A stretch of 64,000 bases of DNA from Candidatus Enterousia sp. (GCA_045587125.1 JAZNBN010000012.1:17461-81460); one strand, 5' to 3'; shown: positions 18,393 to 44,584, numbered from the stretch's first letter. The notes: generated from the letters alone by a model not told the origin. Program-made: numbers and translations.

Positions 18393-18662
18393 ATGCCGCA
18401 AGGTTTTGTTATTACACCTGAATGTCTATCTTGTACAAACCAACAAAAACACTTTGCAGCAAATAACGCAGCCGCAACGGAACCAAAAGATTCACCAAAT
18501 TATCAGGCGAAACAGGATTATTCTGATAAATTATTACGCGAATATTTTCAAATGGTATCCGCCGCTAATAAATGCAATGATGAAAAAATCAAAAAAAGAG
18601 AAACTTTGGATAATTTACAACAACAATTCTATTCACAGCGCCAACATCAACGACAACATTAA
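18393..18662 (+). CDS. Hypothetical Gln-rich small protein
   Basis: ORF only, with no clear SD. It competes with the overlapping ORF 18379-18759. Confidence 0.3.
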   Translation: MPQGFVITPECLSCTNQQKHFAANNAAATEPKDSPNYQAKQDYSDKLLREYFQMVSAANKCNDEKIKKRETLDNLQQQFYSQRQHQRQH

Positions 18663-18736
18663 AACAAAACGACTTTTTAGGTGCAACATTCTATCAACGA
18701 TTGAATACGTTGCATACCACATTGTATGTCACGATT

Positions 18737-19714
18737 TTAATTATGCCTGTTATTTGTGACTGCACCTCTGGACGAACCTGTCCGTATTCTCTTAGGGCTA
18801 TCGATGTTCGGTCTTGTATTGTTTACAGGTTGGGAAATTGCTGATCTTTCTATTTTTTTATTTATTGCTGATCGTGTGGCTGCTCTACGGTTCGGAATTG
18901 CACTTCTATCAGTAAAAATTGATGGCAAAGAACCAAATTCAATATTTTTATTATTGTCCTTGGAATTTAAATCCGTTTTTGTTTCTGTCTGTGTTGTATC
19001 TTGTGGCGCTATTGTGTTTATTTGAACAGATAACTTTTCTGTATTCACAGCATTTGTTTGTGCCTCAGAATTTACATGTATCTTTTTGTTATACGGAATT
19101 CTTTGATTAATTTTATTATTAGACTGTTTTAATATATTCTGCAGATTTGATACTGCTACCTGCGCCTGATCCATGGCAGACTGTAAATTTGTAAGTATCG
19201 CATTAACAGAATCAGTATCATAATTACCATCGTACTCGGGTGTCTCATCAGTTGGTGCTTTATAGTATTCTTTTTGCCAATTACTGTTATTCCTATAACA
19301 TTGAAACACAGAACTTGCCCCACTATCAGAAGAAGGGTACGTCCCAGGACACGCAAAAACATTTTTGATAGCATTTGTGGATGAATGATGTGTAACTTCG
19401 CCATTTTTTATCGTATAAAACCCGAACCACGTAGACACCCATACTTCATCATAATCTGTCGCAACATACATACAATCACTATCTGGGGTTCCATCGTCAC
19501 ACAATCCTTCTTCTTGCCACGCACCCCACCCAGGAGCAACTAATTCAGAAGGTGCTATTTGATAACCTTGAATATCATGACTATAAGTATCACCAGGAGT
19601 ATATTTCCCGTTATTCGTGCAAAACAATCCAGCAGGACACGTTTTTTGTGTGGCAGCAAATGCCTTATATATACACAGCAAAAACATTGTAATAAACACA
19701 GAAACTTTTTTCAT
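18737..19714 (-). CDS. Secreted Cys-rich protein with a low-complexity basic tail
   Basis: Signal peptide MKKVSVFITMFLLCIYKAFA, then TCPAGLFCTNNGKYTPGD. Similar in style to the ORF at 1-348. Confidence 0.65.
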   Translation of the reverse strand: MKKVSVFITMFLLCIYKAFAATQKTCPAGLFCTNNGKYTPGDTYSHDIQGYQIAPSELVAPGWGAWQEEGLCDDGTPDSDCMYVATDYDEVWVSTWFGFYTIKNGEVTHHSSTNAIKNVFACPGTYPSSDSGASSVFQCYRNNSNWQKEYYKAPTDETPEYDGNYDTDSVNAILTNLQSAMDQAQVAVSNLQNILKQSNNKINQRIPYNKKIHVNSEAQTNAVNTEKLSVQINTIAPQDTTQTETKTDLNSKDNNKNIEFGSLPSIFTDRSAIPNRRAATRSAINKKIERSAISQPVNNTRPNIDSPKRIRTGSSRGAVTNNRHN

Positions 19715-19868
19715 ATTATATACCCCATATTTTTACAAATATATTATTAAAAATGCCACCAGCATTCTGCACCGACTATATTAGGTTTATAACATCCCCG
19801 ACCCCATATACCCCTATGGATTTATTTCATAGTATATCACTAAAATCCAGAAATGTAAATAGGATATG

Positions 19869-20273
19869 TTATTTTTGATGTTCTAAACCAAATTCTCTTA
19901 ACAAAGGCAATATTATATCCTGTAGATGCGGATAATATTTTTGCATTGTATCATGTGCATCTAATGGTTTATCTGATTTGGTCAGTCTGGCACATTCCCA
20001 ATCAATTATCATTTCTATATAATCCTGACGGGTTCGTTTTTTGGTGCACTCAACATGGTGTCTGTTGTTTTTTCTGTGGATAGACTGTACCCATTTTTTA
20101 TTACGTCCCACAATCATCGCAATCGGATATAACCATAATAATTTATCTATATCATGCATAAAACCACGCCATGTGTTTCGCCCTAATAATTTGCGTTCAA
20201 CCCGCAAAAACGCACGTTTATGTTCCAAAGTATACTGTTCATAATGGACAAATTCAGAATATTTCATTGCCAC
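19869..20273 (-). CDS. Small His-rich HD-like protein (recalled as DUF5662-like)
   Basis: Motifs FMHDIDKLLW and NNRHH. Overlaps the upstream gene by 10 nt. Confidence 0.5.
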   Translation of the reverse strand: MAMKYSEFVHYEQYTLEHKRAFLRVERKLLGRNTWRGFMHDIDKLLWLYPIAMIVGRNKKWVQSIHRKNNRHHVECTKKRTRQDYIEMIIDWECARLTKSDKPLDAHDTMQKYYPHLQDIILPLLREFGLEHQK

Positions 20274-20989
20274 AAATCCCCCAGTTTTAAATTAAATTTA
20301 TATTGCTTGCTTGGGCGATACCCAGCACCAGATGTTTTTCCAGGCACTTCGGTACAATATTTTGTTATTTTTTTATGAAAATTTGATTTATCAACATTAC
20401 GTTCTGATAACAACATGTAAACCTGGCGTGCATCTTCCAGTGTAAATTCAGATGGCAAAAATTTAAACAAAATATCACTGTTATCAAGACGGCTACGCAT
20501 ATGCTTCCATGCGGTTAATAACTCTATCAACAGTTTATCTTCTTGGATATTTTTTGCATCCGTTTCAAAAAAGTATTCTATGCTAAAACCTACCTTTTCT
20601 TTGGTAACATAAGTATATGTTTTATCGCCCAGTGTTATGACATTATTCTTAATACTAACATCAACCAAATCATATTCCGGTAAAATTTGTTTTATATGCG
20701 AATTATTTGTAATTCCAATATGAATTATATCAATTCCTGACAAATCCAAATACTTTTTGTCTCCAAGTGTATAAACTTGTTCCAGATGGAAACTGTCTGT
20801 ACCCAAAGCATTCGCCAATTCATTACGAATTTGTGCCTTTATATCACAATTATCATTTACAGAAACCGTTGGTAATGCACCGTTTTTGCGGTGCACCAAC
20901 AACCCCAATTTTTTTATACTGTTTTTGCGAATGTCTTGATTGGTAACTTCATCCATTATCAACATAACACATGTTAGATTCAGTTTCAT
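20264..20989 (-). CDS. NrtR-like regulator (degenerate Nudix domain plus C-terminal winged HTH)
   Basis: C-terminal LPSEFTLEDARQVYMLLSERNVDKSNFHKKI matches the NrtR wHTH signature (FTL..L...YE......DK.NFRKK). The Nudix box is degenerate (IRNELANALG). Confidence 0.6.
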   Translation of the reverse strand: MKLNLTCVMLIMDEVTNQDIRKNSIKKLGLLVHRKNGALPTVSVNDNCDIKAQIRNELANALGTDSFHLEQVYTLGDKKYLDLSGIDIIHIGITNNSHIKQILPEYDLVDVSIKNNVITLGDKTYTYVTKEKVGFSIEYFFETDAKNIQEDKLLIELLTAWKHMRSRLDNSDILFKFLPSEFTLEDARQVYMLLSERNVDKSNFHKKITKYCTEVPGKTSGAGYRPSKQYKFNLKLGDLWQ

Positions 20990-21825
20990 CTTACATTATC
21001 CTTGGCTATTTTTAGCAAGTTTAATTTATAATCAACTAAATTGCCACCATAATATACAATGTTAGAATAACCATAGTCTAATTTTTTTGTATAAAATGTA
21101 ATAGGTACACCATGATACATCCACTCATAACGGTCAAAGAATTTTTCATCTTTGATAACAAATTCTGCACGTTCTGACATTTGCCGAATAATCTTATCCG
21201 TATCTTTTTTTGTTAATGCGTTTTGCATAATCCATGCTGAATAGACATTATTTATATTGTCGTTCCTTGTATTTGTATTTAACGTCTTTAAACTGACTGT
21301 TTTAATATTCGGAAATGTGTCTATATACATCTGAATATCACGTAAATAGTCATCAAAAGAACAGTTCTTTAACATTACGTAATTCAAACGTATATCCGCG
21401 GTTTTAAACGCATCTGTATTTATATAATCTCTTTTATACCCCAGCGTTCGCATATCTTTTTCAGAATCAAAATCTGTTCGTGTAATTTCAACCAAGAAAT
21501 CATCTTTAAACAGTTCTAATTTGTTTGGCTCGAAAAACAAGTTACCCGATGTTTGAATACGTTTTTCGTCAAATATGTTTGATGTACGTACCGAATTAAC
21601 AATGGATTTTAATTTATCATACCCGTGCAGCGATGTTTCTCCGTTTCCAGACAAGATAAAATATCTGAAATTTATACCCATATCTTTCAAATATTGAAAT
21701 TTTTCTGGCAACAAATGTATTCTGTCGTCAACCGTTGGCCATTTGGTAATTTTTGCCGTACAATAGGGACAATTTTTATCACATCTGAACGAAGATAAAA
21801 TCAATTCAAATTCTTTATATTTCAT
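20986..21825 (-). CDS. Radical SAM enzyme of unknown specificity
   Basis: CDKNCPYC (Cx3Cx2C) at residues 15-22 and an ILSGNGETSL glycine-rich motif. Confidence 0.7.
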   Translation of the reverse strand: MKYKEFELILSSFRCDKNCPYCTAKITKWPTVDDRIHLLPEKFQYLKDMGINFRYFILSGNGETSLHGYDKLKSIVNSVRTSNIFDEKRIQTSGNLFFEPNKLELFKDDFLVEITRTDFDSEKDMRTLGYKRDYINTDAFKTADIRLNYVMLKNCSFDDYLRDIQMYIDTFPNIKTVSLKTLNTNTRNDNINNVYSAWIMQNALTKKDTDKIIRQMSERAEFVIKDEKFFDRYEWMYHGVPITFYTKKLDYGYSNIVYYGGNLVDYKLNLLKIAKDNVR

Positions 21826-21835
21826 TTTGACTCCT

Positions 21836-22339
21836 TTATACTAGTATGTTGTTAATAATTGGTAAAACTTCATCTGAATTGTTATACGGGAATACTTTGA
21901 CATTTTTATCTCGATACATTGCATCTGCAATCGCAAACCAATGCTCTGACTTGATTTGATGTACAGAATCCTGAATCTTGTACAAAATATAAATTTCTTT
22001 GTTTTGATTTAATGCCCACCCCAACTCAACAATTGCCCCAGGCGAAAATTCTTCATCAAAAACCACAATGAACATATCGCAAATTGATACTTCGTGCGAT
22101 TCGCCCGCTATAACAGTATTACAATCTGTAGCGGATACAGTTCCATCTGGGCCACGCTCGCACCAAAAAGGTCCAACATAACCGTATTTTGAATTTATTT
22201 GTACATTATCATCTGCATAAATCATTTTTTTTGCATCACTCAACAATATAGCACGAAAATCATTTTGAAATCCTTTGACAATATCCGTGGCAAATTCTGG
22301 CGATTTTTTAAATTTTCCTGCAAGATATACTTTTTTCAT
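21836..22339 (-). CDS. Nucleoside 2-deoxyribosyltransferase-like protein
   Basis: N-terminal KVYLAGKF and SPGAIVELGWAL, the family's G...ElGyA pattern. Confidence 0.55.
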   Translation of the reverse strand: MKKVYLAGKFKKSPEFATDIVKGFQNDFRAILLSDAKKMIYADDNVQINSKYGYVGPFWCERGPDGTVSATDCNTVIAGESHEVSICDMFIVVFDEEFSPGAIVELGWALNQNKEIYILYKIQDSVHQIKSEHWFAIADAMYRDKNVKVFPYNNSDEVLPIINNILV

Positions 22340-22911
22340 TGTTCATCCTTTTTCATTATACGTCTCCAATTTACATAGGACATTATTGCCATCACTGTCC
22401 AAACACAATTTAATCCCAATAACCACCATGCAGTATTCGGTAACATAAAGTATTCGATAATATATACAATATCGTTTACCGTCCAAATAACCCACGTATC
22501 CAATTTTCGTTTAACCATGTAATACGTTGCAATAAATCCCGACACGGTAGAAAACGAATCCAGCCACGGCAACGGATCATCCGTATGTTTTAATATACTT
22601 GCGATACAAAACGTTGCAGCACCCCCGCCAAGAATATACAAAACACGTTCTAATGAACTGCATTGTGTTATACTTTGCCTCTGCTTAGATCGAGACCATA
22701 ATATCGTCCCCATAATCCCCATAACTAAATAAACAATGTTATTCATCATATCGCCATACAAATGATTCACAGCAGAAAAAGCAAACAAAGTAATAATTTG
22801 CAAAATATAAAACACCCAATTACTGCGTTTGTTTTGCATTACTAAAAAACCCTGAACCAATCCAAATACGGTCGCAATTATTTCTAATAAAATAGAAAGT
22901 TCAATGTACAT
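22336..22911 (-). CDS. pnuC: PnuC-family nicotinamide riboside/nucleoside transporter
   Basis: Multi-TM protein with PnuC-like segments (GLVQGFLVMQNKRSNW; DTWVIWTVNDIVYI). Start chosen at the internal ATG just after the upstream stop. Confidence 0.7.
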   Translation of the reverse strand: MYIELSILLEIIATVFGLVQGFLVMQNKRSNWVFYILQIITLFAFSAVNHLYGDMMNNIVYLVMGIMGTILWSRSKQRQSITQCSSLERVLYILGGGAATFCIASILKHTDDPLPWLDSFSTVSGFIATYYMVKRKLDTWVIWTVNDIVYIIEYFMLPNTAWWLLGLNCVWTVMAIMSYVNWRRIMKKDEQ

Positions 22912-22922
22912 GTCCGCTCTCT

Positions 22923-23195
22923 TTAAAACGTCAATTGATAATTCACTTCCCAATATAATTGTGTTTTTTCAGACTCAACTAAATCAGTCATACCTCCATT
23001 TTGTAATCCAACGGATGCATTTACTGAATTATTATCATTAATAGAAACGCTTTTTCCTATTTCGCTATAATTATAATACATACCATCAAACCTATCTTGA
23101 AATACACCAACCTTCACATAATTTGTATCCGGTTGTTGTATCGCAGAACATCCAACCAACAAAACACTGAATATAAACAGATGATATTTTTTCAT
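22923..23195 (-). CDS. Small lipoprotein
   Basis: Lipobox LLVGC within MKKYHLFIFSVLLVGCSA. Confidence 0.6.
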   Translation of the reverse strand: MKKYHLFIFSVLLVGCSAIQQPDTNYVKVGVFQDRFDGMYYNYSEIGKSVSINDNNSVNASVGLQNGGMTDLVESEKTQLYWEVNYQLTF

Positions 23196-23604
23196 AAGCG
23201 CTCCTTGATTAAATTTGCCACCCTAAGACTTATGGTAATATACACTATAAGTTATATAATGTCAAGAATTTTTTCACAATTCATATTGCATCCCTTTATT
23301 TATGTACATAAGGATTATTTTATAAACATACGTATTTACATACGACTTGGATTAAAGAAACATTTTTCCGTCCCTGCTCTATCACTGATTATACACACAA
23401 GTTTTCAACCATCATTATCCAACCTATATCAAAAACCGCATTATTCAAACACACAATTCAATCATAGGTTTATTTTTACTATCAGTAACACGTTATTAAA
23501 GATATAAAATTCTTTATTACACACATGTTAAATAATAAAAATACGAAAAATTAAAAAAAATACTTGAAATACTTTTGAATACAGTATATTATATGCAACG
23601 CTAT

Positions 23605-23642
23605 TCGGGCATAGTTCAGTCGGTAGAACAACGGACTGTTAA
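23605..23642 (+). pseudogene. tRNA-Asn 5' half, copy A (nt 1-38, through anticodon loop CTGTTAA)
   Basis: Identical to nt 1-38 of the intact gene at 31267. It diverges directly after the loop. Own promoter TTGAAA-17-TATTAT upstream. Confidence 0.85.
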
Positions 23643-23816
23643 CACAAACGACTCAATCTTCCTATAACTTGATTTAGTTCCGAACCCCCTGTAAATCTGG
23701 GATTTTTCTGATATTAAAATTGGCACTGTTTTTGACGAACATAGGCTTCAGATGGGGTTTAAACAGGTCTGTGTTTTACACAGCCGCTACACAGCACCCC
23801 ATTTTACACCGATTTT
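23643..23816 (+). repeat. 174-nt cassette left-end module, copy A
   Basis: Matches 26793-26966 with 5 mismatches in my alignment. Contains TTTTACACAGCCGCTACACAG. Confidence 0.85.
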
Positions 23817-23844
23817 GTTTGCATGTGTCAATTGCTGAAAAATT

Positions 23845-24561
23845 CTATAAACATAATTGAACAAAACTCTTACCATAAGGTGTCAGTCTAACCAAACCCT
23901 TGTGATAAAAAGCACCCAATTCTGCTTTCTGTTTTTGTATATATAACGCCTGTTCATATAGCACCTCGTACAATTCTTGTCTTGTAATATGCTCTGACAT
24001 CGTACATACAACCAAGCCCAATCTTTGCAAATTAACCAAAGCAACTGAATCTGTAAAAATTTTAACTTCATCTTTTTCGATTGGTTCAAGAATAATACAC
24101 GGATCCAATATCATTCGGTATCCACCCATACCTTTATTAGCTTTTTTTCTTACAGACACTATCGGATACATTTCAATATTTTGTATACTTTTTAATATAT
24201 TAACATCTTGTACGGATAACTGTTTTATAATCTCTACAAAGCTATCTTGTATAGCGTCACTAGTTTCTCTGTTTGAAGCAGCAGCAATCAATTTGGCAAA
24301 TATCTCCCGTTTATATTCTTCGTCTACGTACCAACGCGCCGCTTCTAAAGCTGGCCCAACTACGGACCTTTTAGGCGAAATTATATTTTTTGGACTAATC
24401 GTAGATAGATATTTTGTTATATTATTACCATAAGCAGCTATAACGTCTGGCGAAGTTTGCAACTCCCCAAAGATGCAATTTACCATAGTTATTGGACAAT
24501 TATTCATCTGTGTCATAACAGCGTCATTACCAGCACTTTGACTTTGTTTTATCTTATCCAT
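23845..24561 (-). CDS. Abi-alpha (DUF4393-like) abortive-infection-type protein
   Basis: PALEAARWYVDEEYKREIFAKLIAAASN....DSFVEIIKQLSVQDVNILK resembles the Abi-alpha core. Start set at MDKIKQ. Confidence 0.55.
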   Translation of the reverse strand: MDKIKQSQSAGNDAVMTQMNNCPITMVNCIFGELQTSPDVIAAYGNNITKYLSTISPKNIISPKRSVVGPALEAARWYVDEEYKREIFAKLIAAASNRETSDAIQDSFVEIIKQLSVQDVNILKSIQNIEMYPIVSVRKKANKGMGGYRMILDPCIILEPIEKDEVKIFTDSVALVNLQRLGLVVCTMSEHITRQELYEVLYEQALYIQKQKAELGAFYHKGLVRLTPYGKSFVQLCL

Positions 24562-24562
24562 C

Positions 24563-24712
24563 TTATGCTCGCTGTACCTGTTTAGAGTTGTCACCTGCTT
24601 TTTGTGTTTGTTTTATTGAATTTTTGTTTATATGCACCACTATACTACCACCAACAATCCCTGAGATAAAACTTACTACTAAATTTATTAAATCAACATT
24701 ATTAAAATTCAT
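24563..24712 (-). CDS. 49-aa single-TM protein immediately upstream of the Abi-alpha gene
   Basis: Not in the ORF track (shorter than 60 aa). AAAGGGG SD 6 nt before the ATG. Sequence MNFNNVDLINLVVSFISGIVGGSIVVHINK... Its stop lies 1 nt before the Abi-alpha ATG. Confidence 0.5.
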   Translation of the reverse strand: MNFNNVDLINLVVSFISGIVGGSIVVHINKNSIKQTQKAGDNSKQVQRA

Positions 24713-24798
24713 ATTCGACCCCTTTGTAATTATCGTTATTTTAACTCGCTAAGTTATAGCAAAAAATTCGTTAAAGGTCAATAAGTTACAAACAAAAC

Positions 24799-24816
24799 AC
24801 CGCCCAATTGGGCGGT
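24799..24816. terminator. Perfect palindrome ACCGCCC-AATT-GGGCGGT
   Basis: Downstream of the minus-strand gene 24843-25349, with T/A runs on both sides. Confidence 0.65.
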
Positions 24817-24842
24817 TGTTTTACTTGCTCACCACCTGTTTC

Positions 24843-25349
24843 TTATTCAAATATTTTTGTTTCTTCGTTATAAACTGCAATATATCGTTCACCAAGCCTT
24901 GCATCCCAAAACTTCTCTATGGCTTTCAATATCTCTGTCAATTCCATTTCTTTATCATCTTTTATTACTATAAGTTTGGCAGGTACATTTGTACCGGACT
25001 TTCTGCCGGTTTTACACGGTTTATTTAAATTAAAGTGTTTCGTACCATTGGCAATATTTTCCAATACTTCGCTATAGGGCATTTCTTTACTAATCACCTC
25101 TTTCTCTGCCTTTGTCTTACAAAACCAATCCCTTACATGGTAAAGTGTAATACAAGCATTTATTGCTGTTCGTTCATCGGACTCTTCTTTGTAAAACTCT
25201 CTTAGATTCTGTTTTACAATCCGATGATAAAAATACTTTGGTTCATGGTATATAAAAGATGGGCCAGGTCTTTCTAGAGAGACCTTTATATCCGGGAAAA
25301 TTTCTAGTCCTAACTCTGGTATGGATATTTTCTTAGTAAAATGTTCCAC
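24843..25349 (-). CDS. Hypothetical protein (168 aa)
   Basis: GTG start. No family recognised. Weak HEPN-like hints (LYHVRDWF, ANGTKH) only. Confidence 0.5.
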   Translation of the reverse strand: MEHFTKKISIPELGLEIFPDIKVSLERPGPSFIYHEPKYFYHRIVKQNLREFYKEESDERTAINACITLYHVRDWFCKTKAEKEVISKEMPYSEVLENIANGTKHFNLNKPCKTGRKSGTNVPAKLIVIKDDKEMELTEILKAIEKFWDARLGERYIAVYNEETKIFE

Positions 25350-25381
25350 TTTTCACTCCTTAAATTGCATTAGATAAAATA

Positions 25382-25399
25382 ACCGCCCGATTGGGCGGT
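25382..25399. terminator. Palindrome ACCGCCC-GATT-GGGCGGT
   Basis: Lies between the OMP gene and the 168-aa gene. Confidence 0.6.
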
Positions 25400-25416
25400 A
25401 TGATCGTTTTGTTAAC

Positions 25417-26142
25417 TTAAAAAACATATTTTATACCGGTCCTAATCGTATGATTTGTTAAATTTTGACCGCACTCTTTTATATCTGCTAATCGATAGTT
25501 TTCACGATGCACTCCATACACACCAAACGACTTCATTTCTTCCTCTGTACCAAAGGCTCCATCCGGAAACAAATTATTTGCATATTCAGCATTTGCCGCA
25601 TAATACCCGCCAAGATCAGCATTATTTTTTAATTTGTTCATATCATAACTGATATCAATATACAGATTATCGTGTATTTTAACAGACGTTCCCAAACCTA
25701 TAACAGCACCAGAATCCATCGAGCCAAATTTTGTTTTATTGTGTAACAAAGCACCCAACTTTACATATGGTGTAACACCTTTATACGTTCCACCAAATTT
25801 CAGACTTAACGACGACCAGTTTTTCACTGTATTGCCACCAGTGTTATAATTGATACCTAAAGCCACATAAAACCATTCGTAGCGAAAATCGCTACCAATT
25901 TCAAAGCTAGTTCCAAAATTCTTATCAGAGCCACTATGTTGGCTGTCATATATAAAGTAATAGTGTGCGGCAGGATAGAACCAATTTTGCCAATGATGAA
26001 TGTCGTGTTCTTTTATTTTATTCTGCACTAGATTAACGCCAGCACTAATTTGCGCATAAGGTTTTATGCTCCACTCTGCGTTGGCATTTGTTGCACTTAT
26101 AACAGTCAATAAAACACAAGTAAAAAATGCACATCTTTTCAT
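25417..26142 (-). CDS. Outer-membrane beta-barrel protein
   Basis: Signal peptide ending ANA, alternating beta-strand pattern, and C-terminal IKYVF. Confidence 0.7.
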   Translation of the reverse strand: MKRCAFFTCVLLTVISATNANAEWSIKPYAQISAGVNLVQNKIKEHDIHHWQNWFYPAAHYYFIYDSQHSGSDKNFGTSFEIGSDFRYEWFYVALGINYNTGGNTVKNWSSLSLKFGGTYKGVTPYVKLGALLHNKTKFGSMDSGAVIGLGTSVKIHDNLYIDISYDMNKLKNNADLGGYYAANAEYANNLFPDGAFGTEEEMKSFGVYGVHRENYRLADIKECGQNLTNHTIRTGIKYVF

Positions 26143-26348
26143 TATATCTCTCTTGCTTTCATTCCCATTCTAGCAATAACATTTAAAAATGTAAATTGAA
26201 TATATTGCATTATTCTGTGTAGCAGAAATGGGGCGTTTTTTTACAAAATTTGGTGTGGATCGCTACATTGAAAAAATACGTGCAAAAAAGCGTGCGTTTT
26301 CTGATGAATCTGGATACAGATACAAACGCATACCATCCCGACCGTTCA

Positions 26349-26754
26349 GTATTTTACACAGGTGCTACACAGATTAGCAAAATACAAAAACCGCACAAAT
26401 GACTTTTGCTGGATTCTTGGGACGCACGTGGCATTTTTAGTCCCTTTAAACTTACGGACTACTGAGGCAATGTGCTGAGCGACATAAAAAAATAATATTT
26501 TGGTCAATAAAAAAACACCAAAACTGCAGATTTCCGCCACATAATTCGTCTTATGATTGTTTTGTCGTTTTACTCTCGAAAAAGCTCCCAATCTCACGGA
26601 CAAAAATAGGTCAAAAAGGCATAAAAAAATGTTTTCCACATTTCATACACACAGGCGAAATTTCATAAAAAAATCCGCAGATTTCTGCGGTTTACATATT
26701 TTTGAAAAAAGCCTTGACTTCTGCGGAAAATTGATATATTATTCTGTTCGCTAT
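26349..26754 (+). repeat. About 400-nt cassette right-end module 1 (carries the promoter for tRNA half B)
   Basis: Homologous to 30868-31266, with shared blocks CGCAGATTTCCGCCACA, AAAAATGTTTT.CACATTTCATACACACAG and TTTTTGAAAAAAGCCTTGACTTCTGCGG. Contains the palindrome CCGCAGATTTCTGCGG at 26675-26690. Confidence 0.8.
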
Positions 26755-26792
26755 TCGGGCATAGTTCAGTCGGTAGAACAACGGACTGTTAA
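26755..26792 (+). pseudogene. tRNA-Asn 5' half, copy B
   Basis: Identical to nt 1-38 of the intact gene. Preceded by TTGACT (26714-26719), a 17-nt spacer and TATTAT. Confidence 0.85.
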
Positions 26793-26966
26793 CACAAACG
26801 ACTCAATCTTCCTATAACTTGATTTAGTTCCGAACACCCTGTAAATCTGGGATTTTTCTGATATTAAAATTGGCACTATTTTTGACGAACATAGGCTTCA
26901 AATGGGGTTTAAGCAGGTCTGTGTTTTACACAGCTGCTACACAGCACCCCATTTTACACCGATTTT
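26793..26966 (+). repeat. 174-nt cassette left-end module, copy B
   Basis: See 23643-23816. Confidence 0.85.
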
Positions 26967-27055
26967 TTTACAGCATCTCAAAAGCCCATTTTTCAGCATA
27001 TCCGATGTACTTTTTTGGATGTCGTTGGATAGATTTTTTGCAATAAGAAATAATA

Positions 27056-28492
27056 TTAGCCCTGCAAAATGTTTATCATGCAATCTATTGACTGTCGCAT
27101 TTCTTCGTCTGATGGCTCCAATGGATGTAGAAGATTACGTTCGTTCCTTGACGCCTCTGGGTGGTGGTAAAAATTTCTTATATACGTCATTAAAGTAAGC
27201 TTTTGGGCTGATTTAAAAACTCCATCTTTTAATCGTGACCATAGCTTTTCTTGTTTTACGTCATTTGTTTTCAAAAATTCTTCCATTTCATTTTCTTTTT
27301 CACGTCCATTTTTTTCTTGTATATAGCCATATAATTCATCATGAAACTCTATCGTTGGTATATTAAACGCAAAATATCTTATTTCCGCATACGTAGGCCC
27401 AAATGGCAGTACGAATTTATTGTTAACAGATTCTGCTTTAACGGTATTTTCTTGTTCGGTCAGTACGATTATTTGCGCTTTCTTATCCATAGCATCTTTT
27501 AATACATATTCGGAATGAGTCGCAAAAAATATTTGTGACTTTTGTTCTGTTTCTGTCTTAAACAAATCAGAATAAAATGAAAATATTTTACTTTGCCATC
27601 TTGGATGCATACTAATTTCTGGCTCATCAATTAAAACAATACTTCCGTCTAGCACGCCCATATTTTTGAGCAAAAAGCCTCCTCTAAATACAATTTGTTT
27701 TTCTCCGGAACTTAATTCTTCTAATCTAACTTGTTTACCGTTTTTCATAAACATCACTTGTTGCTGATTACCATCTGCTACAATCCCGTGAAAATTTATA
27801 CTTTGAAACATTTTGTTAAAAGCATCTGTGAATCTAGACAGTTTTACATGCTTTACTTCATTTGGTGGCACACAACCGTCATGCACATCTATCCAATCTG
27901 ACAAATATTGATTATCTTGCACGCTGATATCTATCAACAACTGCTTAAATAGCATTGCGATATCTTTGTTGGTATGTCTAGGTCCGAGATCTTCTAAGGA
28001 ATCGATTTGAGATGCTGTAATTGATCTGATTGCTTGTGTTTCAAAATTCATTCCTACTTTAGAGTGAATAGAATGAAATACTGAGGAAACTCTGTTCATA
28101 ATCGCAGGATAAGGATGTTTTTCTCCAGACAAGTAAACGACATAATTGTTATAACTGTCGTCTTCCGTATGTTTGTATTGTAGCACAAAAGTCTTATTAT
28201 CTAAATTCCTTACTATGGACACACGTGGTTCTCCTAAAAATGATTTAACTAAATCAAATTCTTTCGAAGTTAGTATGCATTTTATTTCAAAATCAAAAGA
28301 AGGCCTGGTCAGTAAAAAATTATGCATTTGAGCTGTTATATTATGCAACAGATTTAGCAGAGCTGTCTTCCCTGTGCCGTTTTCACCGGCAAAAACTATA
28401 TTTTTATACGGCTTACCATTTTCATCACAAAAATTTAATTCTAAATCATGTAAAATCGGATGATTCTGTAATTTTAAACTTGCTATTTCCAT
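27056..28492 (-). CDS. ABC-type (AAA_21-like) ATPase with a C-terminal domain of unknown function
   Basis: Walker A GENGTGKT, Walker B VLIDEPEISMHP, and FFATHS. Start set at MEIASLKL. Confidence 0.65.
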   Translation of the reverse strand: MEIASLKLQNHPILHDLELNFCDENGKPYKNIVFAGENGTGKTALLNLLHNITAQMHNFLLTRPSFDFEIKCILTSKEFDLVKSFLGEPRVSIVRNLDNKTFVLQYKHTEDDSYNNYVVYLSGEKHPYPAIMNRVSSVFHSIHSKVGMNFETQAIRSITASQIDSLEDLGPRHTNKDIAMLFKQLLIDISVQDNQYLSDWIDVHDGCVPPNEVKHVKLSRFTDAFNKMFQSINFHGIVADGNQQQVMFMKNGKQVRLEELSSGEKQIVFRGGFLLKNMGVLDGSIVLIDEPEISMHPRWQSKIFSFYSDLFKTETEQKSQIFFATHSEYVLKDAMDKKAQIIVLTEQENTVKAESVNNKFVLPFGPTYAEIRYFAFNIPTIEFHDELYGYIQEKNGREKENEMEEFLKTNDVKQEKLWSRLKDGVFKSAQKLTLMTYIRNFYHHPEASRNERNLLHPLEPSDEEMRQSIDCMINILQG

Positions 28493-28587
28493 ATTCGGTC
28501 CTTTTAAACCAAACATACAATGATAATGATGTAAATTCAATAACTTTTTATATAAAAACCGCCCCATTTTGGAGCGGTTGGTTTTTA

Positions 28588-30867: not shown

Positions 30868-31266
30868 TCTGTGTTTTACACAGGCGCTACACAGATTGCC
30901 GAAATCCGCAAAAACGCTTTTGGGGCTTTGGGCGGTTTTCTGGGAAAAATTTTCGTCAAGACACGCGGACTGCTACAACCATGTACTGGGCGTTACACAC
31001 AGTTTTGGCACATTTTGGCAAAACAGACGGCAAAAACCGCAGATTTCCGCCACACAATTCGCTTTATAATTGTTTCAGAACATTGCCCACAAAAAACCAC
31101 CCAGACGCACGGACAAAAACAGCTCAAAAAAGGCGAAAAAAATGTTTTACACATTTCATACACACAGCCAATAATACACAGAAAAAACCGCAGATTCCCG
31201 AGGGTTATACGTTTTTGAAAAAAGCCTTGACTTCTGCGGGAAATTATTCTAGAATTGCTCTGCTAT
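30868..31266 (+). repeat. Cassette right-end module 2, including the tRNA-Asn promoter
   Basis: Homologous to 26349-26754. TTGACT (31227-31232), a 17-nt spacer and TAGAAT (31250-31255). Confidence 0.8.
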
Positions 31267-31342
31267 TCGGGCATAGTTCAGTCGGTAGAACAACGGACTG
31301 TTAATCCGTATGTCACTGGTTCGAGTCCAGTTGCCCGAGCCA
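31267..31342 (+). tRNA. tRNA-Asn (anticodon GTT), CCA encoded
   Basis: Hand-folded: acceptor TCGGGCA/TGCCCGA, anticodon loop CTGTTAA, T-arm ACTGG-TTCGAGT-CCAGT, discriminator G. 76 nt. Confidence 0.92.
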
Positions 31343-35878: not shown

Positions 35879-37525
35879 ATGGCAAAAAGCGAAACTATTA
35901 AAAATGAAGATATTTGGCAGAAAGACAAACTTGGTATAAAGCAGCACGTTACAAGCTTTGCCAATATTTTAAAGCAGGAAAAATACGTAGAAAATGGGAC
36001 ATCAAAAGTTTATTCCATTTCTGCTGAATTTGGTGTCGGAAAAACCTTCTTTTGCGAAAGACTGGCAGACATCTTGGAGCAAGACGGCATTCCTGTAAGC
36101 ATGCTAAATATATGGAAAATGGACTTTTATGATAATCCATTGGTGCCCTTGTTGATAAAACTAGAAGAAACATACTCACAACAATCAGAAACTGTTCGCA
36201 CAAAAAAGTTTCCAAACCCTCATGGATTATTAAGAGTTGCAAAATCTATTATTGCCGGTATAAATTTAGACGCACAAATTCCTGGTGTTGGCGAAATGAA
36301 CATTAACGGCGAAAAAATGGTTAACACTAATGAAAGCTTGAAACAGAATTCAACACAAAAATCCATCTATGACGAATACAAAACATTTGAAGAAGAACTG
36401 CATAAGATTAAAAGCTTTTTGGAAAATTGGGCAAAGAGCCTAGAAAGATCAATAGTTGTAATTATTGATGAATTAGATCGTTGTCGCCCAGACTATGCAG
36501 TAAAGACACTTGAAACTCTCAAACATTTCTTTGACATCCCTGGATTTGTATTTGTTTTGGCAATCGATGAATGCCAGCTTAAAAGCTCTGTGGAAACGTT
36601 ATATGGCACAAAGAATTTTGACGGATATAAACGTAAATTTATAAATAATTCTTTTGTGCTGCCTGAACCAGACAAAGTAAAATTTACAGATTATTTATAT
36701 GCCAAATCTGGTTTAGATCATATTATTAAACAAATTGAAAACAATCAAAGGGATTTGGTGTTTAAAATTAGACGCAATACGTATATAGAGAGGAGTTTGC
36801 CCGCTAGAATTAGCACCGAATTTCAAGAGGAACTAAATAAAATCAAAACATACAACCAACAACAAACATCAGAGTCTATTATTAAACGATATTTTGCTGC
36901 GTATAGTATACGATATAAGTTTTCTTTACGACAAATGGAACAAGTATTTGATAGGTTAGTTTTGTTCATAAAAAACATATTGGCAAATAATGTATTATTT
37001 TCACCAGACCTTGCTGTATTCTTGGTATGTTTACATGAATTTGATTTAGCAATATATACCAAACTTAAACAGAAAGGGTATATTGGATATGATGAAAATA
37101 TACAGACTGTAATTATTGGATCTAATACATCATTAGCCTATTCAATTTACGATAAAAATTCATTTTCAAAAGTATCTGGAGTTTTAGATAGCAACATAGT
37201 TCCAAATGTTCACACATATCCAGGATTTTCAAGCTCGCAGCCAGAAAGCGACCTCACTAGCTCTCGTATATGCATACGCCATAATGTAGACCGTTTTTTC
37301 AAAGCAGATAAAAACACAGCTATGAGATTCATAACTGACACAACAGAGTTTGGCGAAAGCAACCAAATCGACAATGGGGGAAGAATTACAATTGTTAGAC
37401 ACCCTCAAACGGACTCTCAATGGAAAACGCCGCCGCCAGATATAGATACAGCATCTGACTTTGATCTAGATGTGTTTAAGCAGGTATACTTCGAAAATGT
37501 AGAGTTTGTTTCTAATTTTTCCTGA
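35879..37525 (+). CDS. KAP-family P-loop NTPase
   Basis: Walker A AEFGVGKTFF and VVIIDELDRCRPDYAVKTLETLKHFF (KAP signature). Confidence 0.75.
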   Translation: MAKSETIKNEDIWQKDKLGIKQHVTSFANILKQEKYVENGTSKVYSISAEFGVGKTFFCERLADILEQDGIPVSMLNIWKMDFYDNPLVPLLIKLEETYSQQSETVRTKKFPNPHGLLRVAKSIIAGINLDAQIPGVGEMNINGEKMVNTNESLKQNSTQKSIYDEYKTFEEELHKIKSFLENWAKSLERSIVVIIDELDRCRPDYAVKTLETLKHFFDIPGFVFVLAIDECQLKSSVETLYGTKNFDGYKRKFINNSFVLPEPDKVKFTDYLYAKSGLDHIIKQIENNQRDLVFKIRRNTYIERSLPARISTEFQEELNKIKTYNQQQTSESIIKRYFAAYSIRYKFSLRQMEQVFDRLVLFIKNILANNVLFSPDLAVFLVCLHEFDLAIYTKLKQKGYIGYDENIQTVIIGSNTSLAYSIYDKNSFSKVSGVLDSNIVPNVHTYPGFSSSQPESDLTSSRICIRHNVDRFFKADKNTAMRFITDTTEFGESNQIDNGGRITIVRHPQTDSQWKTPPPDIDTASDFDLDVFKQVYFENVEFVSNFS

Positions 37526-42222: not shown

Positions 42223-44196
42223 TTACAACTCCTCTACACCAATGTCGGTTAGGTATTGCCATAGGGCGTCATAGAATTTTGGTTGGCGGGTGGCGTCTGA
42301 TGCGTCGCCGCGTGGGACAAAGATTACAAAGCCTTCGCGGGCGCGGGTCAGCAGCACACGATATGCGTTTTTAAGATAACGTCTCTTGTCTTCTTGGTTG
42401 ATTGATAGCCAACGCGAACCACTGGGTTTGAAATATTCAAATTTGCCGTCAACATATCTGTAATCTGCGTCCCAGCCAACAACCGCATAATCTATTTCCA
42501 GGCCCTGGATATCAAATTCACTGGCCGCTTCTTCCATAAAGTATGAAGACTTGATATCATCACGTTCACCCAGGAACCACTTTTCCGGCTTGCACTTACT
42601 TTCTATCCAAATTCCGTCCGCACGCAATCTGCGACCATTTGAACTGGCAATCAAGCCATGACGCAACGTCTTGCCCGCAGTCTGTTCACGCACCCATTGC
42701 TTTGCACGCGCCAAATCACGCGTCATATAAATTGGATAGACTTCGGACAGTCGCTTATATTTTTCTGCGGCGGCGGCAGCATCATTATCAAGTAAAGAGT
42801 CAACAAAACCCGCAACATCGGATGTTCTGTGTGCACGCAATGATACAGACAGGTGCAGTTCCTTAATCGTTTCGCATTTCAGCCCATCGGTTAGGTCCGC
42901 AAACGATTGGTCGCCCAGGTATTCACTGGCAGTTATATCGCCAGACACGTAAACATTCCAATCTGGGAAAGAACGCTTTAATGACGCAAACCATTCTTGG
43001 ATACCGGCCTCGCCAGTGTTAATGTCCTGACCACCACCAACAAGGCACACAATCACGGCCCAATCTTGGTGTCGGTTCATATAGTCAATTAACAACTCTG
43101 GCTCGCTCATAGCCAAGAAGTGGGCACGCTGTTCATCAGTTAGACGGTTAAGAATCGCCCCTTTCTTCTTTTGCATAAAGTCTGATAACATACGTTGGTT
43201 CCATGCACGCTGTGCTTCGTCAAATATGACAACATTTTCAGTTGGAACGTCTGCCTCATTCAAGGAACGATCACGAAAGTGATGAATTATCTGAATAGAA
43301 GATTTTATCTTGCTGTGCGTAAGAGATTTGGACGTACCATTTTGCTTGTATGCATCTAGAGCCAAAGCCTCGCTAAGTACCGAAACCAATGGCTGATTAC
43401 CTGTCAAAAAGCACGAATAACTTTGCCCCGTTGTTTTCTGATTTGCAAATACAATGTTCAGACCGGCCAAGGTTTTACCCGCACCAGGAACACCCGTGAT
43501 AAAGCAGATGGATTTTTGTTTATTCTGCTTTGATTGTTCGATTATACGCTGAACCGCATCTGATGTCTTGGTCAGGTTTTCGGCGGCTGTATTTTGCGCA
43601 ATATCTGCGACAGAGTGAGTGTTATATAGGGCTTTGGCGGCTTCAATAATCGTTGGGGTCGGGACATATCTGGAATTTGCCCATTTATCCATATTGATTG
43701 TTGTGCACGAAGTATCTGTGTTGTGAATAATTATATTACGCAATTCATCGCCATCGGTCAGGATTACATCTTCTGGAACATCGTGTTTACGGTAGTCATC
43801 CGGCACACCCGTTGCCACCAAGATAGGAACGATTTTACACTGACGGCTTTCTTCGTGATAGTTTTGCAAATCAAATGCGTATGTGCGAACCTGGCGAATT
43901 GCATCACTGGCATAAGTTTCTGCGCCGACCTTAAATTCCAGAACAAAGACAGTATTGTTTATCAGCAAGATGTTATCTATGCGACCGCCCACACGTGGCA
44001 GTGTGTATTCAAACAGAATGCTGCCAGATGGCGCGTATGCCAGCGCATATTTCAACACGCGAATTTGTTCCATCCAGGCGTCTTTTTGTGCCGCAACTGT
44101 GTCGTATCTGTCACCTGCGGCGATAATACCAAAGATTTCATCATCGCTTTGGTGCAAGAAGTTTTGAATACTGTTTTTGTAGAAAGCGTCGCTCAT
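42223..44196 (-). CDS. DUF2075-type nuclease-ATPase (PD-(D/E)xK-like N-domain plus P-loop helicase-like core)
   Basis: GGRIDNILLINNTVFVLEFKVG, Walker A GVPGAGKT and VVIFDEAQR. Start at MSDAFYK, 1 nt after the NUDIX stop. Confidence 0.65.
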   Translation of the reverse strand: MSDAFYKNSIQNFLHQSDDEIFGIIAAGDRYDTVAAQKDAWMEQIRVLKYALAYAPSGSILFEYTLPRVGGRIDNILLINNTVFVLEFKVGAETYASDAIRQVRTYAFDLQNYHEESRQCKIVPILVATGVPDDYRKHDVPEDVILTDGDELRNIIIHNTDTSCTTINMDKWANSRYVPTPTIIEAAKALYNTHSVADIAQNTAAENLTKTSDAVQRIIEQSKQNKQKSICFITGVPGAGKTLAGLNIVFANQKTTGQSYSCFLTGNQPLVSVLSEALALDAYKQNGTSKSLTHSKIKSSIQIIHHFRDRSLNEADVPTENVVIFDEAQRAWNQRMLSDFMQKKKGAILNRLTDEQRAHFLAMSEPELLIDYMNRHQDWAVIVCLVGGGQDINTGEAGIQEWFASLKRSFPDWNVYVSGDITASEYLGDQSFADLTDGLKCETIKELHLSVSLRAHRTSDVAGFVDSLLDNDAAAAAEKYKRLSEVYPIYMTRDLARAKQWVREQTAGKTLRHGLIASSNGRRLRADGIWIESKCKPEKWFLGERDDIKSSYFMEEAASEFDIQGLEIDYAVVGWDADYRYVDGKFEYFKPSGSRWLSINQEDKRRYLKNAYRVLLTRAREGFVIFVPRGDASDATRQPKFYDALWQYLTDIGVEEL

Positions 44197-44197
44197 T

Positions 44198-44584
44198 TTA
44201 CTTTCCTTTGGCTTGTAGTGTTTTAGATACGATTTGGTCGGCGGGGAGTTGTGGGTGGGAGGGCAAGTCCTGGACCGGCACCCAATGCATATCGTCGTGG
44301 ACGCGCAATTGGATTTCGCCGGTGTAGGATGTGATTTCGTATGTATGAAGTTCAATAACCTTGCCTGAATCTGTTGTGTGTTTTGCGATTGTAATCAGGT
44401 CGCCAATTTGTGCGTCAATACCCAATTCTTCAAACAGCTCCCTGCGCAGGCATGTTGGGCCGTCTTCGCCATCTTCAAACTTGCCACCGGGGTATTCCCA
44501 TTCACCCGCCAATGGCTGGTCTGCCCCACGTCGCATCAGCAGAACTTTATCCCCATCCCTAAAAATCGCAGCTGTTACTTTCAC
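44198..44584 (-). CDS. NUDIX hydrolase (MutT-like)
   Basis: Complete Nudix box GGKFEDGEDGPTCLRRELFEELGI. Confidence 0.8.
   Translation of the reverse strand: MKVTAAIFRDGDKVLLMRRGADQPLAGEWEYPGGKFEDGEDGPTCLRRELFEELGIDAQIGDLITIAKHTTDSGKVIELHTYEITSYTGEIQLRVHDDMHWVPVQDLPSHPQLPADQIVSKTLQAKGK

Follow-up and report, generated by a model that had tools for sequence, protein, structure and literature searches.

A conserved gut bacterial operon joining a PnuC-family transporter, an NDT-like enzyme and a small radical SAM family under an NrtR-type operator

The described systems closest to the locus reported here are the operons for salvage of nicotinamide adenine dinucleotide (NAD) precursors, such as nadR-pnuC-nrtR of Streptococcus or the porin, nucleotidase, PnuC and NadR set of Haemophilus. 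Our locus lies within a stretch of 64,000 nucleotides from Candidatus Enterousia sp. (GCA_045587125.1 JAZNBN010000012.1:17461-81460; the whole stretch is called the window, and positions are counted from its first letter). Here, five minus-strand genes at 19,869-22,911 encode a PnuC-family transporter, a protein resembling nucleoside 2-deoxyribosyltransferases (NDT-like), a radical S-adenosylmethionine (SAM) enzyme, an NrtR-like regulator and a small, His-rich DUF5662 protein. With the NAD salvage operons this cassette shares the PnuC-family importer, the NrtR-family repressor and a palindromic operator of the GT-N7-AC type; it likewise gains an outer-membrane component in diderm hosts, and many of its versions contain a gene resembling nicotinamide mononucleotide (NMN) adenylyltransferases. 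It differs from them in that it has no NadR or nicotinamide riboside (NR) kinase, its transporter has other residues in place of those that bind NR, the Nudix domain of the regulator is unrecognisable, and the NDT-like and radical SAM proteins form an extra, invariant core. The cassette is real, strongly conserved and without a description in the literature searched, and it is probably an undescribed nucleoside-processing pathway. The reading that we favour, at about an even chance, is a pathway linked to the NAD regulon for the uptake and conversion of a nucleoside other than nicotinamide riboside.

The five genes are arranged as follows, all on the minus strand of the open reading frame (ORF) table. 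The PnuC gene occupies an open frame at 22336-22953, with the ATG at 22911 as its likely start (PF04973); the gene of the NDT-like N-glycosidase or transferase, a DNPH1/MilB-like protein of 167 aa, is at 21836-22339; the radical SAM gene (279 aa, one CxxxCxxC site) at 20986-21825; the regulator gene, whose product has a winged helix at the C-terminus and a divergent effector domain at the N-terminus, at 20264-20989; and the DUF5662 gene (134 aa), a putative metal-dependent phosphohydrolase, at 19869-20273. The junctions consist of two 4-nt overlaps (22336-22339 and 20986-20989), one 10-nt overlap (20264-20273) and one 10-nt gap (21826-21835). The overlapping start and stop codons indicate translational coupling. 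The five genes are one real, tightly coupled operon, and the gene order kept in other genomes (see below) shows that this is no chance juxtaposition. The original prediction, made from the sequence of the window, had given the same five genes and junctions, and its coordinates are borne out, as are the signatures it had pointed to (VYLAGKF, AIVELGWAL and CDKNCPYC), all of which are present in the translations. Its family labels stand in part: PnuC, NDT-like, radical SAM and the winged helix of NrtR are supported, the Nudix half of the regulator was not detected, and the HD-like label of the last protein comes down to a motif pattern.

The transcription unit extends upstream of these genes. A predicted lipoprotein gene (90 aa, 22923-23195, minus strand) abuts pnuC and is the first gene of the operon in the window clade; the N-terminus of its product has a signal and a lipobox-like LLVGCS sequence, there is a weak lipoprotein-family match, and homologues are found at the cassette in four other loci (L011, L012, L054 and L067). 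Upstream of it, at 23237-23265 on the minus strand, is a sigma-70-type promoter, TTGACA-17 nt-TATATT, which matches 11 of 12 positions and is the top promoter-like site within 19500-23900. The -10 box is overlapped by a 23-bp palindrome, CTTATAGT-gtatatt-ACCATAAG, at 23229-23251, with an NrtR-type GT-N7-AC core; a search for an NrtR operator upstream of the operon had been suggested in the original prediction. Both the palindrome and the -35 box with its flank are conserved in L011 and L054. An Rfam scan of 18500-26500 (E up to 1), together with nine related loci scanned at the gathering threshold, gave tRNAs and chance leader matches only; no preQ1, thiamine pyrophosphate (TPP), flavin mononucleotide (FMN), purine, 2'-deoxyguanosine or other nucleoside riboswitch was among them.

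The conservation of the cassette was followed in a scan of one genome per species, which gave 57 loci with a radical SAM homologue. All are from gut or rumen metagenome-assembled genomes, labelled as Alphaproteobacteria, Bacilli (including Mycoplasmatota-like members), Clostridia or Gastranaerophilales. ORF, BLAST and clustering analysis found the order PnuC, NDT-like, radical SAM on a single strand in 55 of the 57 loci, and in the two exceptions the contig end falls inside the radical SAM gene. Between phyla the radical SAM proteins are 64-70% identical, the PnuC proteins 49-62% and the NDT-like proteins 40-55%. This pattern, with the radical SAM protein highest, points to a strongly constrained unit that spreads horizontally among gut bacteria. 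The core enzymes also occur fused: the Bacilli loci L059-L063 encode both enzymes, radical SAM and NDT-like, as a single polypeptide, further representatives have the arrangements NDT-radical SAM (P0162), radical SAM-NDT (P0167) and X-radical SAM-NDT (P0171), and in L071 the NDT-like domain is fused to a kinase-like protein of ~300 aa. Distant members of the radical SAM family (~33% identity) carry a cytidylate kinase fusion. Such fusions argue strongly for enzymes that handle consecutive intermediates of the same pathway. The original prediction had taken the radical SAM and NDT-like proteins for additions to the PnuC/NrtR setting, which is supported, and had called the route possibly undescribed; in agreement with this, our literature searches on PnuC with radical SAM, PnuC with deoxyribosyltransferase, and gut glycosidase with radical SAM combinations retrieved no description.

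The radical SAM protein stands in a separate small family, whose genes are almost always beside pnuC, and does not fall into a characterised family of unrelated function. Its score with PF04055 is below the cut-off (20.2 vs 29.5) and its NCBIfam matches are sub-threshold only (E 0.035-0.05). C15, C19 and C22 of the CDKNCPYC motif are the sole invariant cysteines, distant members included, which indicates a single cluster site; a GNGE(P/T)S sequence, similar to the GGE motif for SAM, is also conserved, and there are many invariant Lys and Arg residues. We found 293 close metagenome homologues, 64-98% identical, and when 1.84 billion representative proteins were searched exhaustively without a profile, just 91 clusters came up at E up to 0.001, so the family is very small and isolated. 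A search with a profile of the distant members returned the core family only; the contexts of these members were taken by direct look-up. One of them deserves separate mention: at L070 951-3210, the gene after a cytidylate-kinase/radical-SAM fusion is of the metallo-beta-lactamase fold and has a match to the anti-Pycsar Apyc1 family.

A PDB search with the sequence of the radical SAM protein gave no match, and fold comparison was more informative. The AlphaFold2 (AF2) model has a predicted local distance difference test score (pLDDT) of 85, and Foldseek found 84 fold matches in the PDB at E < 0.001; all 50 matches listed are radical SAM enzymes. MoaA is best, with template modelling (TM) scores of 0.59-0.61, followed by viperin and viperin-like enzymes with bound CTP (~0.55), and then by NifB, HydE and BioB. 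MoaA, which acts on GTP, and viperin both use nucleoside triphosphates. The two nearest folds, together with the cytidylate kinase fusions and the thymidylate-kinase-like neighbour described below, suggest a nucleotide substrate for the modelled enzyme. With viperin and MoaA it shares the partial TIM barrel and the N-terminal CxxxCxxC, and like viperin, which is associated with CMPK2, it keeps company with nucleoside monophosphate (NMP) kinases, being fused to one in the distant relatives and adjacent to one in Firmicutes. It differs from both in that sequence models miss it: viperin models of NCBIfam and PADLOC gave no match at E up to 0.1. The second, C-terminal set of [4Fe-4S] cysteines of MoaA is absent, just the three N-terminal cysteines being conserved family-wide, and the protein has an obligatory glycosidase and transporter as partners and no consistent defence-island context.

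The NDT-like protein can be assigned more closely. Its Pfam scores are both below the cut-offs (PF05014, 22.2 bits vs 28.8; PF15891, 17.1 vs 30), and many of its homologues carry a precomputed PF05014 match. The AF2 model has a pLDDT of 94.6, and its nearest folds are the cytidine monophosphate (CMP) N-glycosidases BcmB and MilB, with DNPH1 also listed; BcmB and MilB lead the PDB sequence search as well, where DNPH1 is again among the matches listed. Among 20 homologues, Y5, E80, D88, G101 and E105 are invariant and S99 nearly so. We mapped these residues by sequence alignment to MilB, using the roles reported for MilB (PMC4081090) and DNPH1 (PMC10603095). In this alignment the invariant E105 falls on the nucleophile (MilB E103, DNPH1 E104), so the catalytic Glu is retained throughout, and S99-x-G101 on the phosphate site (MilB S97/G99, DNPH1 S98). 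E80 takes the position of the acid, where MilB has D78 and DNPH1 D80, i.e. Glu instead of Asp, and F10 that of the base-stacking F22 of MilB. Y5 stands where the ribo-specific MilB has F17 and the deoxy-specific DNPH1 has Y24; the F17Y exchange in MilB reportedly switches the substrate from CMP to dCMP. We therefore predict from these residues that the enzyme acts on a nucleoside 5'-monophosphate, and that its sugar site resembles that of the deoxy-specific enzymes by Tyr, the one determinant known.

It is useful to compare this protein with the whole group of DNPH1/Rcl, MilB, BcmB and BlsM. All have the same fold and a Glu nucleophile within (V/I)E(L/I)GWA, and the NDT-like protein also shares with the DNPH1/MilB group an acidic residue 25 positions upstream of the nucleophile, the Ser-x-Gly site and the base-stacking Phe. 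Identity to this group, however, is ~15-20%; there is Tyr, as in DNPH1 and NDT, for the Phe of MilB, Glu for the Asp acid, and Lys for Pro in the N-terminal motif. The genomic setting is different too, since the NDT-like protein is linked or fused to the radical SAM protein and the transporter and, unlike the DNPH1/MilB group, has no link to ThyA-like hydroxymethylases.

The transporter belongs clearly to the PnuC family (PF04973, E 1.5e-39 over 174 of 175 profile positions; TIGR01528 above cut-off). It has the sequence WVIWTVND, which fits the WxxW(x)3D/N motif of the Pnu family in transmembrane helix 6 (PMC5749112), with Asp as in the thiamine carrier PnuT. In the PnuC of N. mucosa, NR is coordinated by Q124, Q196, N214 and Y242 (PMC13464706). 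An alignment to this protein (4QTN), which reproduced the published numbering with a constant offset of 25, places G, T, D and W at these positions in the window PnuC, and the replacements are themselves conserved in 52 distinct cassette PnuCs (G 50/52, T 52/52, D 50/52, W 52/52). Judged by these aligned residues, the cassette PnuC is a distinct Pnu subfamily with a conserved pocket unlike that of the NR carriers, and the remodelled pocket suggests that the imported nucleoside is not ordinary nicotinamide riboside. Thiamine and riboflavin were considered as Pnu substrates and set aside: the Rfam scans detected neither a TPP nor an FMN riboswitch, and families of thiamine or flavin metabolism were absent both from the recurrent neighbour clusters that had been annotated and from the neighbourhoods catalogued.

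The regulator matches the winged-helix family PF21906 above the cut-off (E 5.3e-13) and AraR_C (E 6e-7), and its C-terminal part matches 2FML and AraR. A Nudix domain gave no Pfam match in the window protein at E up to 0.1; in a canonical NrtR with the same operator (one representative checked) the Nudix match was detected. Published NrtR motifs are 21-bp palindromes with a GT-N7-AC core, and members of the family have also been recruited to non-NAD pathways (PMC2330246). At up to 2 mismatches the 64-kb window has no other match than the operator at 23229-23251, against a chance expectation of 0.06. Of the 15 genome-scan loci with an NrtR-like gene, 12 have a palindrome within 2 mismatches of this operator directly 5' of the cassette; these sites are from Alphaproteobacteria and Firmicutes and are often paired, 41 bp apart. 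Exact copies in public metagenomes number at least 120, many of which must be due to chance, and at least 22 of these adjoin canonical nrtR genes. The operons annotated downstream of such sites are either nrtR-nadA-nadB-nadC or nrtR with a major facilitator superfamily (MFS) sugar-transporter-family gene of the niaP kind. On the evidence of the shared palindrome, the cassette operator is one that is also found at NAD biosynthesis and niacin uptake genes beside canonical nrtR.

Genes of NAD metabolism join the cassette as well. A NadM-like adenylyltransferase gene is present in 25 loci; its product has the motifs RxQPFHxGH (RCQPFHIGH) and SGxxVR (SGNMVR), and NMN adenylyltransferases are its best match, at sub-threshold level. 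A CinA/PncC gene is directly upstream of pnuC in L007-L010, and a nicotinate phosphoribosyltransferase (NAPRTase) gene is nearby in L007. The palindrome common to the nadABC and niaP-like genes and the NAD enzymes that join the cassette are our grounds for placing the putative pathway within NAD-precursor metabolism. In addition, a 133-kb viral contig has a distant radical SAM relative between pncB-nadE and pncA: at L077 5107-9489 (IMG/VR UViG_3300029288_001928), pncB (NAPRTase), a glutamine-dependent nadE, the 285-aa radical SAM relative and a pncA-like isochorismatase gene are consecutive, and this row may be an NAD-rebuilding module that includes the radical SAM gene. Finally, a second tandem operator in a locus whose first one is discussed below (L014 1543-1606, equal to L068 3543-3606) precedes genes of a 768-aa and a 368-aa protein, for which no family match was found; these may be further members of the regulon.

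Around the invariant core the cassette is assembled in several ways. In the window clade the order is lipoprotein, PnuC, NDT-like, radical SAM, NrtR-like, DUF5662. Alphaproteobacteria and Gastranaerophilales have a type with NadM-like adenylyltransferase, CofE-like ligase, DUF5662, PnuC, NDT-like, radical SAM and OprB porin; Clostridia and Bacilli one with PnuC, NDT-like, radical SAM, kinase-like protein, a small uncharacterised protein, NrtR-like regulator and RdgB/Ham1. Another type from Bacilli consists of a divergent LysR gene, a 287-aa uncharacterised protein, PnuC, the radical SAM-NDT fusion, the kinase-like protein, RdgB or DHH/DHHA1, and a metallophosphatase. Porin and lipoprotein genes are found only in loci labelled as diderm taxa, which fits a role in outer-membrane transport. 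The CofE-like protein (F420-0:gamma-glutamyl ligase family, 400 aa, with a large insertion; L004 5275-6477) has homologues in 20 loci, and in gut Alphaproteobacteria, in which the use of F420 is not expected, its gene has a conserved place, with the NadM-like gene on one side and DUF5662 on the other.

A candidate nucleotide phosphohydrolase is nearly always part of the cassette. One and the same position is taken by DUF5662, RdgB, DHH, a metallophosphatase or a MazG-like gene, the last of these on a phage-like contig. The DUF5662 protein (PF18907, E 4.9e-9) is encoded at the cassette in 32 loci and, in Bacilli, a DHH/DHHA1 phosphoesterase fusion occurs. The conserved residues H18, H40-D41, H66, H72-H73, D84 and D91 form an HD-like pattern, assigned on a motif basis only; no HD-family Pfam match was obtained for the protein, PDB sequence searches with the single sequence or a profile gave no meaningful match, and no paper on DUF5662 was found. 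RdgB, the XTP/dITP diphosphatase, is above the NCBIfam cut-off in 17 loci, and its specificity is for non-canonical purine triphosphates. The kinase-like protein of ~300 aa is encoded 3' of the radical SAM gene in 20 loci. Its P-loop, EGTDGVGKTTT, followed by CQDR, is thymidylate-kinase-like, and a PDB search with its profile gave no meaningful match. A CYTH/triphosphate-tunnel domain in its N-terminal half was considered on motif resemblance, for which Pfam gives no support. A domain shared between the kinase-like protein and the regulator was rejected too, as the two had co-clustered through one fused ORF.

The pairing of a radical SAM enzyme with a phosphohydrolase has a parallel in oxetanocin biosynthesis, where OxsB and OxsA, a radical SAM and an HD phosphohydrolase, act on deoxyadenosine phosphates, OxsB being large and cobalamin-dependent. 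Our cassette likewise combines a radical SAM protein with a small His/Asp-rich putative phosphohydrolase, and its substrate is likely a phosphorylated (deoxy)nucleoside. It differs in that the radical SAM protein has no cobalamin domain, DUF5662 is HD-like by motif only, and there is no sign of antibiotic production.

Taken as a pathway, the cassette could work as follows. An outer-membrane lipoprotein, as in the window, or an OprB porin, as in the related Alphaproteobacteria, and the PnuC-type facilitator would import the nucleoside. It would be trapped by phosphorylation in the cell, for which the Firmicutes versions may use the thymidylate-kinase-like protein that they encode as a neighbour or fusion partner. 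The single-cluster radical SAM enzyme would then alter the phosphorylated nucleoside, acting on the di- or triphosphate, and the product would be trimmed to the monophosphate by DUF5662 here and by RdgB/Ham1, DHH, metallophosphatase or MazG-like enzymes elsewhere. The DNPH1/MilB-like enzyme might finally cleave the base-sugar bond at C1' or move the sugar phosphate to another base. The NrtR-family repressor encoded in the operon would control the whole of it by binding to the palindrome over the -10 box. The analysis shows the coupling of the genes, the fusions, the catalytic residues, the altered transporter pocket and the operator with its distribution; we infer which nucleoside is used, the direction of its transport, how the radical enzyme changes it and in which order the steps follow, and likewise the steps from phosphorylation through trimming. 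The radical SAM fold, the NMP-kinase fusions and neighbours and the nucleoside triphosphate (NTP) pyrophosphatases suggest a radical step on the di- or triphosphate with the N-glycosidase acting afterwards on the monophosphate. The original prediction had also proposed a salvage or remodelling route. The coupled operon on which it was based is upheld; its sequence of import, cleavage, radical chemistry and dephosphorylation is just one possibility, and fold, kinase fusions and pyrophosphatases suggest the other one.

There are several points that weigh against this NAD-linked pathway and need to be discussed. The N-terminal domain of the regulator is unrecognisable as Nudix, so its effector may not be ADP-ribose. 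An NrtR-like gene is present in 15 of the 57 genome-scan loci (16 with the window), and the others have either LysR or no visible regulator. NadM-like and CofE-like genes occur only in related loci of Alphaproteobacteria and Gastranaerophilales, so that a shared ancestry of the region, instead of function, could explain them. The window operon encodes no kinase, the order of steps would be a reconstruction, and among radical SAM barrels the TM scores to MoaA and viperin (0.5-0.6) count as moderate. In L014/L068 the tandem operator is followed by a genuine purA as first gene of the operon, and purA is also nearby in L008, L009 and L027. This last finding, the Tyr at the position of MilB F17, the DNPH1-like phosphate site, the thymidylate-kinase-like P-loop and RdgB point to deoxynucleotides or purines more than to pyridines.

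Because of these deoxynucleotide and purine features and the divergent effector domain, we keep as the main rival a possible, if rather unlikely, NAD-independent salvage or sanitation of modified (deoxy)nucleotides, for which the NrtR-type regulator was merely recruited. A modified or non-canonical nucleoside, perhaps a purine, would be imported from the turnover of DNA or RNA and phosphorylated by the cell, radical chemistry would remove or alter the modification, and a DNPH1-like split would release base and sugar phosphate for reuse. Y5, at which deoxy-specific DNPH1 and NDT have Tyr and ribo-specific MilB Phe, the Ser-x-Gly phosphate site, the P-loop of the neighbouring protein, RdgB in 17 loci and purA, first under the operator in L014 and nearby in three further loci, would all be natural in such a pathway, and the recruitment of NrtR-family members to non-NAD pathways has precedents (PMC2330246). 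However, the operator is identical to that at the nadABC and niaP-like operons, the cassette is accompanied by genes of the NadM-like, PncC and NAPRTase kinds, the viral homologue is set among pncB, nadE and pncA, and the Rfam scans gave no purine, 2'-deoxyguanosine or other nucleoside riboswitch. It is tempting to bring the two sets of features together: the substrate, once imported and phosphorylated, might be a cationic nucleoside, of the pyridinium type or another, whose sugar the radical enzyme dehydrates or deoxygenates, and from this high-energy glycosidic donor the DNPH1-like partner might transfer the altered sugar phosphate to ordinary bases. For the fused or coupled pair this would be chemistry without a known counterpart. 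We consider this highly speculative and improbable. If true, it would be a route to deoxy- or dehydro-nucleotides without ribonucleotide reductase that draws on the NAD-precursor pool, and it would account for the NAD-type regulation and NAD-recycling genes as well as for the deoxy-type Tyr, the thymidylate-kinase-like protein, RdgB and purA.

Three further explanations were considered. Ordinary NR salvage under NrtR, with the other genes as unrelated passengers, would agree with a PnuC-family transporter above the TIGR01528 cut-off and with an NrtR-family regulator and NAD-regulon-type operator; we regard it as very unlikely, given that all four NR-coordinating residues are replaced by conserved substitutes, that profile searches found no NadR or NR kinase in the window operon, and that the genes taken for passengers are the very ones with the highest conservation and the tightest linkage, fused to each other and, by their start/stop codon overlaps, translationally coupled. 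We likewise attach little probability to a viperin-like production of an antiviral or antibacterial nucleotide analogue, with the radical SAM enzyme making a chain-terminating or toxic nucleotide, glycosidase and phosphohydrolases protecting the cell or maturing the product and PnuC exporting it. The fold similarity to CTP-bound viperin and viperin-like enzymes, the distant cytidylate kinase fusions reminiscent of viperin-CMPK2, one of which adjoins the Apyc1-like metallo-beta-lactamase gene, and the position of the window operon next to tRNA-Asn-integrated islands with defence-like genes all speak for it. On the other hand, PADLOC matches none of the operon proteins, NCBIfam has no viperin model match, elsewhere the neighbours are housekeeping genes (EF-Tu, plsX-acpP, purA), the repressor is of a metabolite type, the porin added in diderm hosts fits uptake, and no radical SAM homologue was found in 50,697 annotated phage genomes; PHROGs gave PnuC and weak NDT matches only for the operon proteins. 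The cassette is not detectably a defence system, though it stands beside defence-like islands in the window. The salvage of queuosine, which the original prediction had offered as a loose analogy with its pair of nucleoside hydrolase and radical SAM lyase, or of another 7-deazapurine resembles the cassette only in its broad plan, in which a glycosidase works with a radical SAM enzyme beside a transporter. No tgt or que family is present among the annotated recurrent neighbour clusters or catalogued neighbourhoods, the Rfam scans gave no preQ1 riboswitch, the radical SAM protein is above threshold for no curated NCBIfam family, and an NDT/DNPH1-type glycosidase with a phosphate site indicates a nucleotide rather than a nucleoside substrate; a literature search on queuine lyase gave a general review only. 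The analogy has no support, and we consider such a route extremely improbable.

Compared with these alternatives, the NAD-regulon-linked pathway for a nucleoside other than NR remains the reading that we favour, and the cassette can be filed under nucleoside salvage of the NrtR/PnuC type, in which both the radical SAM family and the Pnu subfamily are new. The radical SAM family is very small and highly conserved, and has a fixed enzymatic partner and a dedicated transporter. Its hosts are uncultured gut bacteria from no fewer than four groups. The operator places the cassette in the NAD regulon, yet two of its enzymes, the NDT-like and the radical SAM one, are absent from the NAD operons described in two papers (PMC2330246, PMC13464706). 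With the substrate identified, a missing piece in the supply of vitamin B3-related or nucleotide precursors to gut bacteria would be in place, along with a new radical reaction on nucleotides and the specificity of a new PnuC subfamily. Owing to the fusions and the conserved operator, direct experiments should be straightforward to design, and we point to this cassette as it might be of interest for such studies.

A few features of the surrounding DNA can be added. The first 43 nt of tRNA-Asn(GTT), up to the anticodon loop, occur as perfect direct repeats at 23600-23642, at 26750-26792 and within 31262-31342, the third copy being the intact gene (31267-31342); the first two are accompanied by a 235-nt repeat (23585-23819 and 26735-26969, 95% identical). 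It looks as if two islands of ~3.1 and ~4.5 kb had been inserted in tandem at tRNA-Asn, beginning ~340 bp upstream of the operon promoter. The region 23845-49071 is rich in defence-like genes, namely Abi_alpha/PDC-S47 (23845-24594), an AAA_15/AAA_21 ATPase (27056-28567), a KAP-family NTPase (35879-37525), a Schlafen-like helicase (42223-44355) and a DUF4379 zinc-finger/NUMOD protein (47341-49071). On the other side, directly 3' of the operon, 18737-19714 encodes a secreted protein of 325 aa without a family match, whose N-terminus is Cys-rich and whose C-terminus is rich in Asn, Thr and Ser; a promoter-like site at 19859-19831 belongs to this gene.

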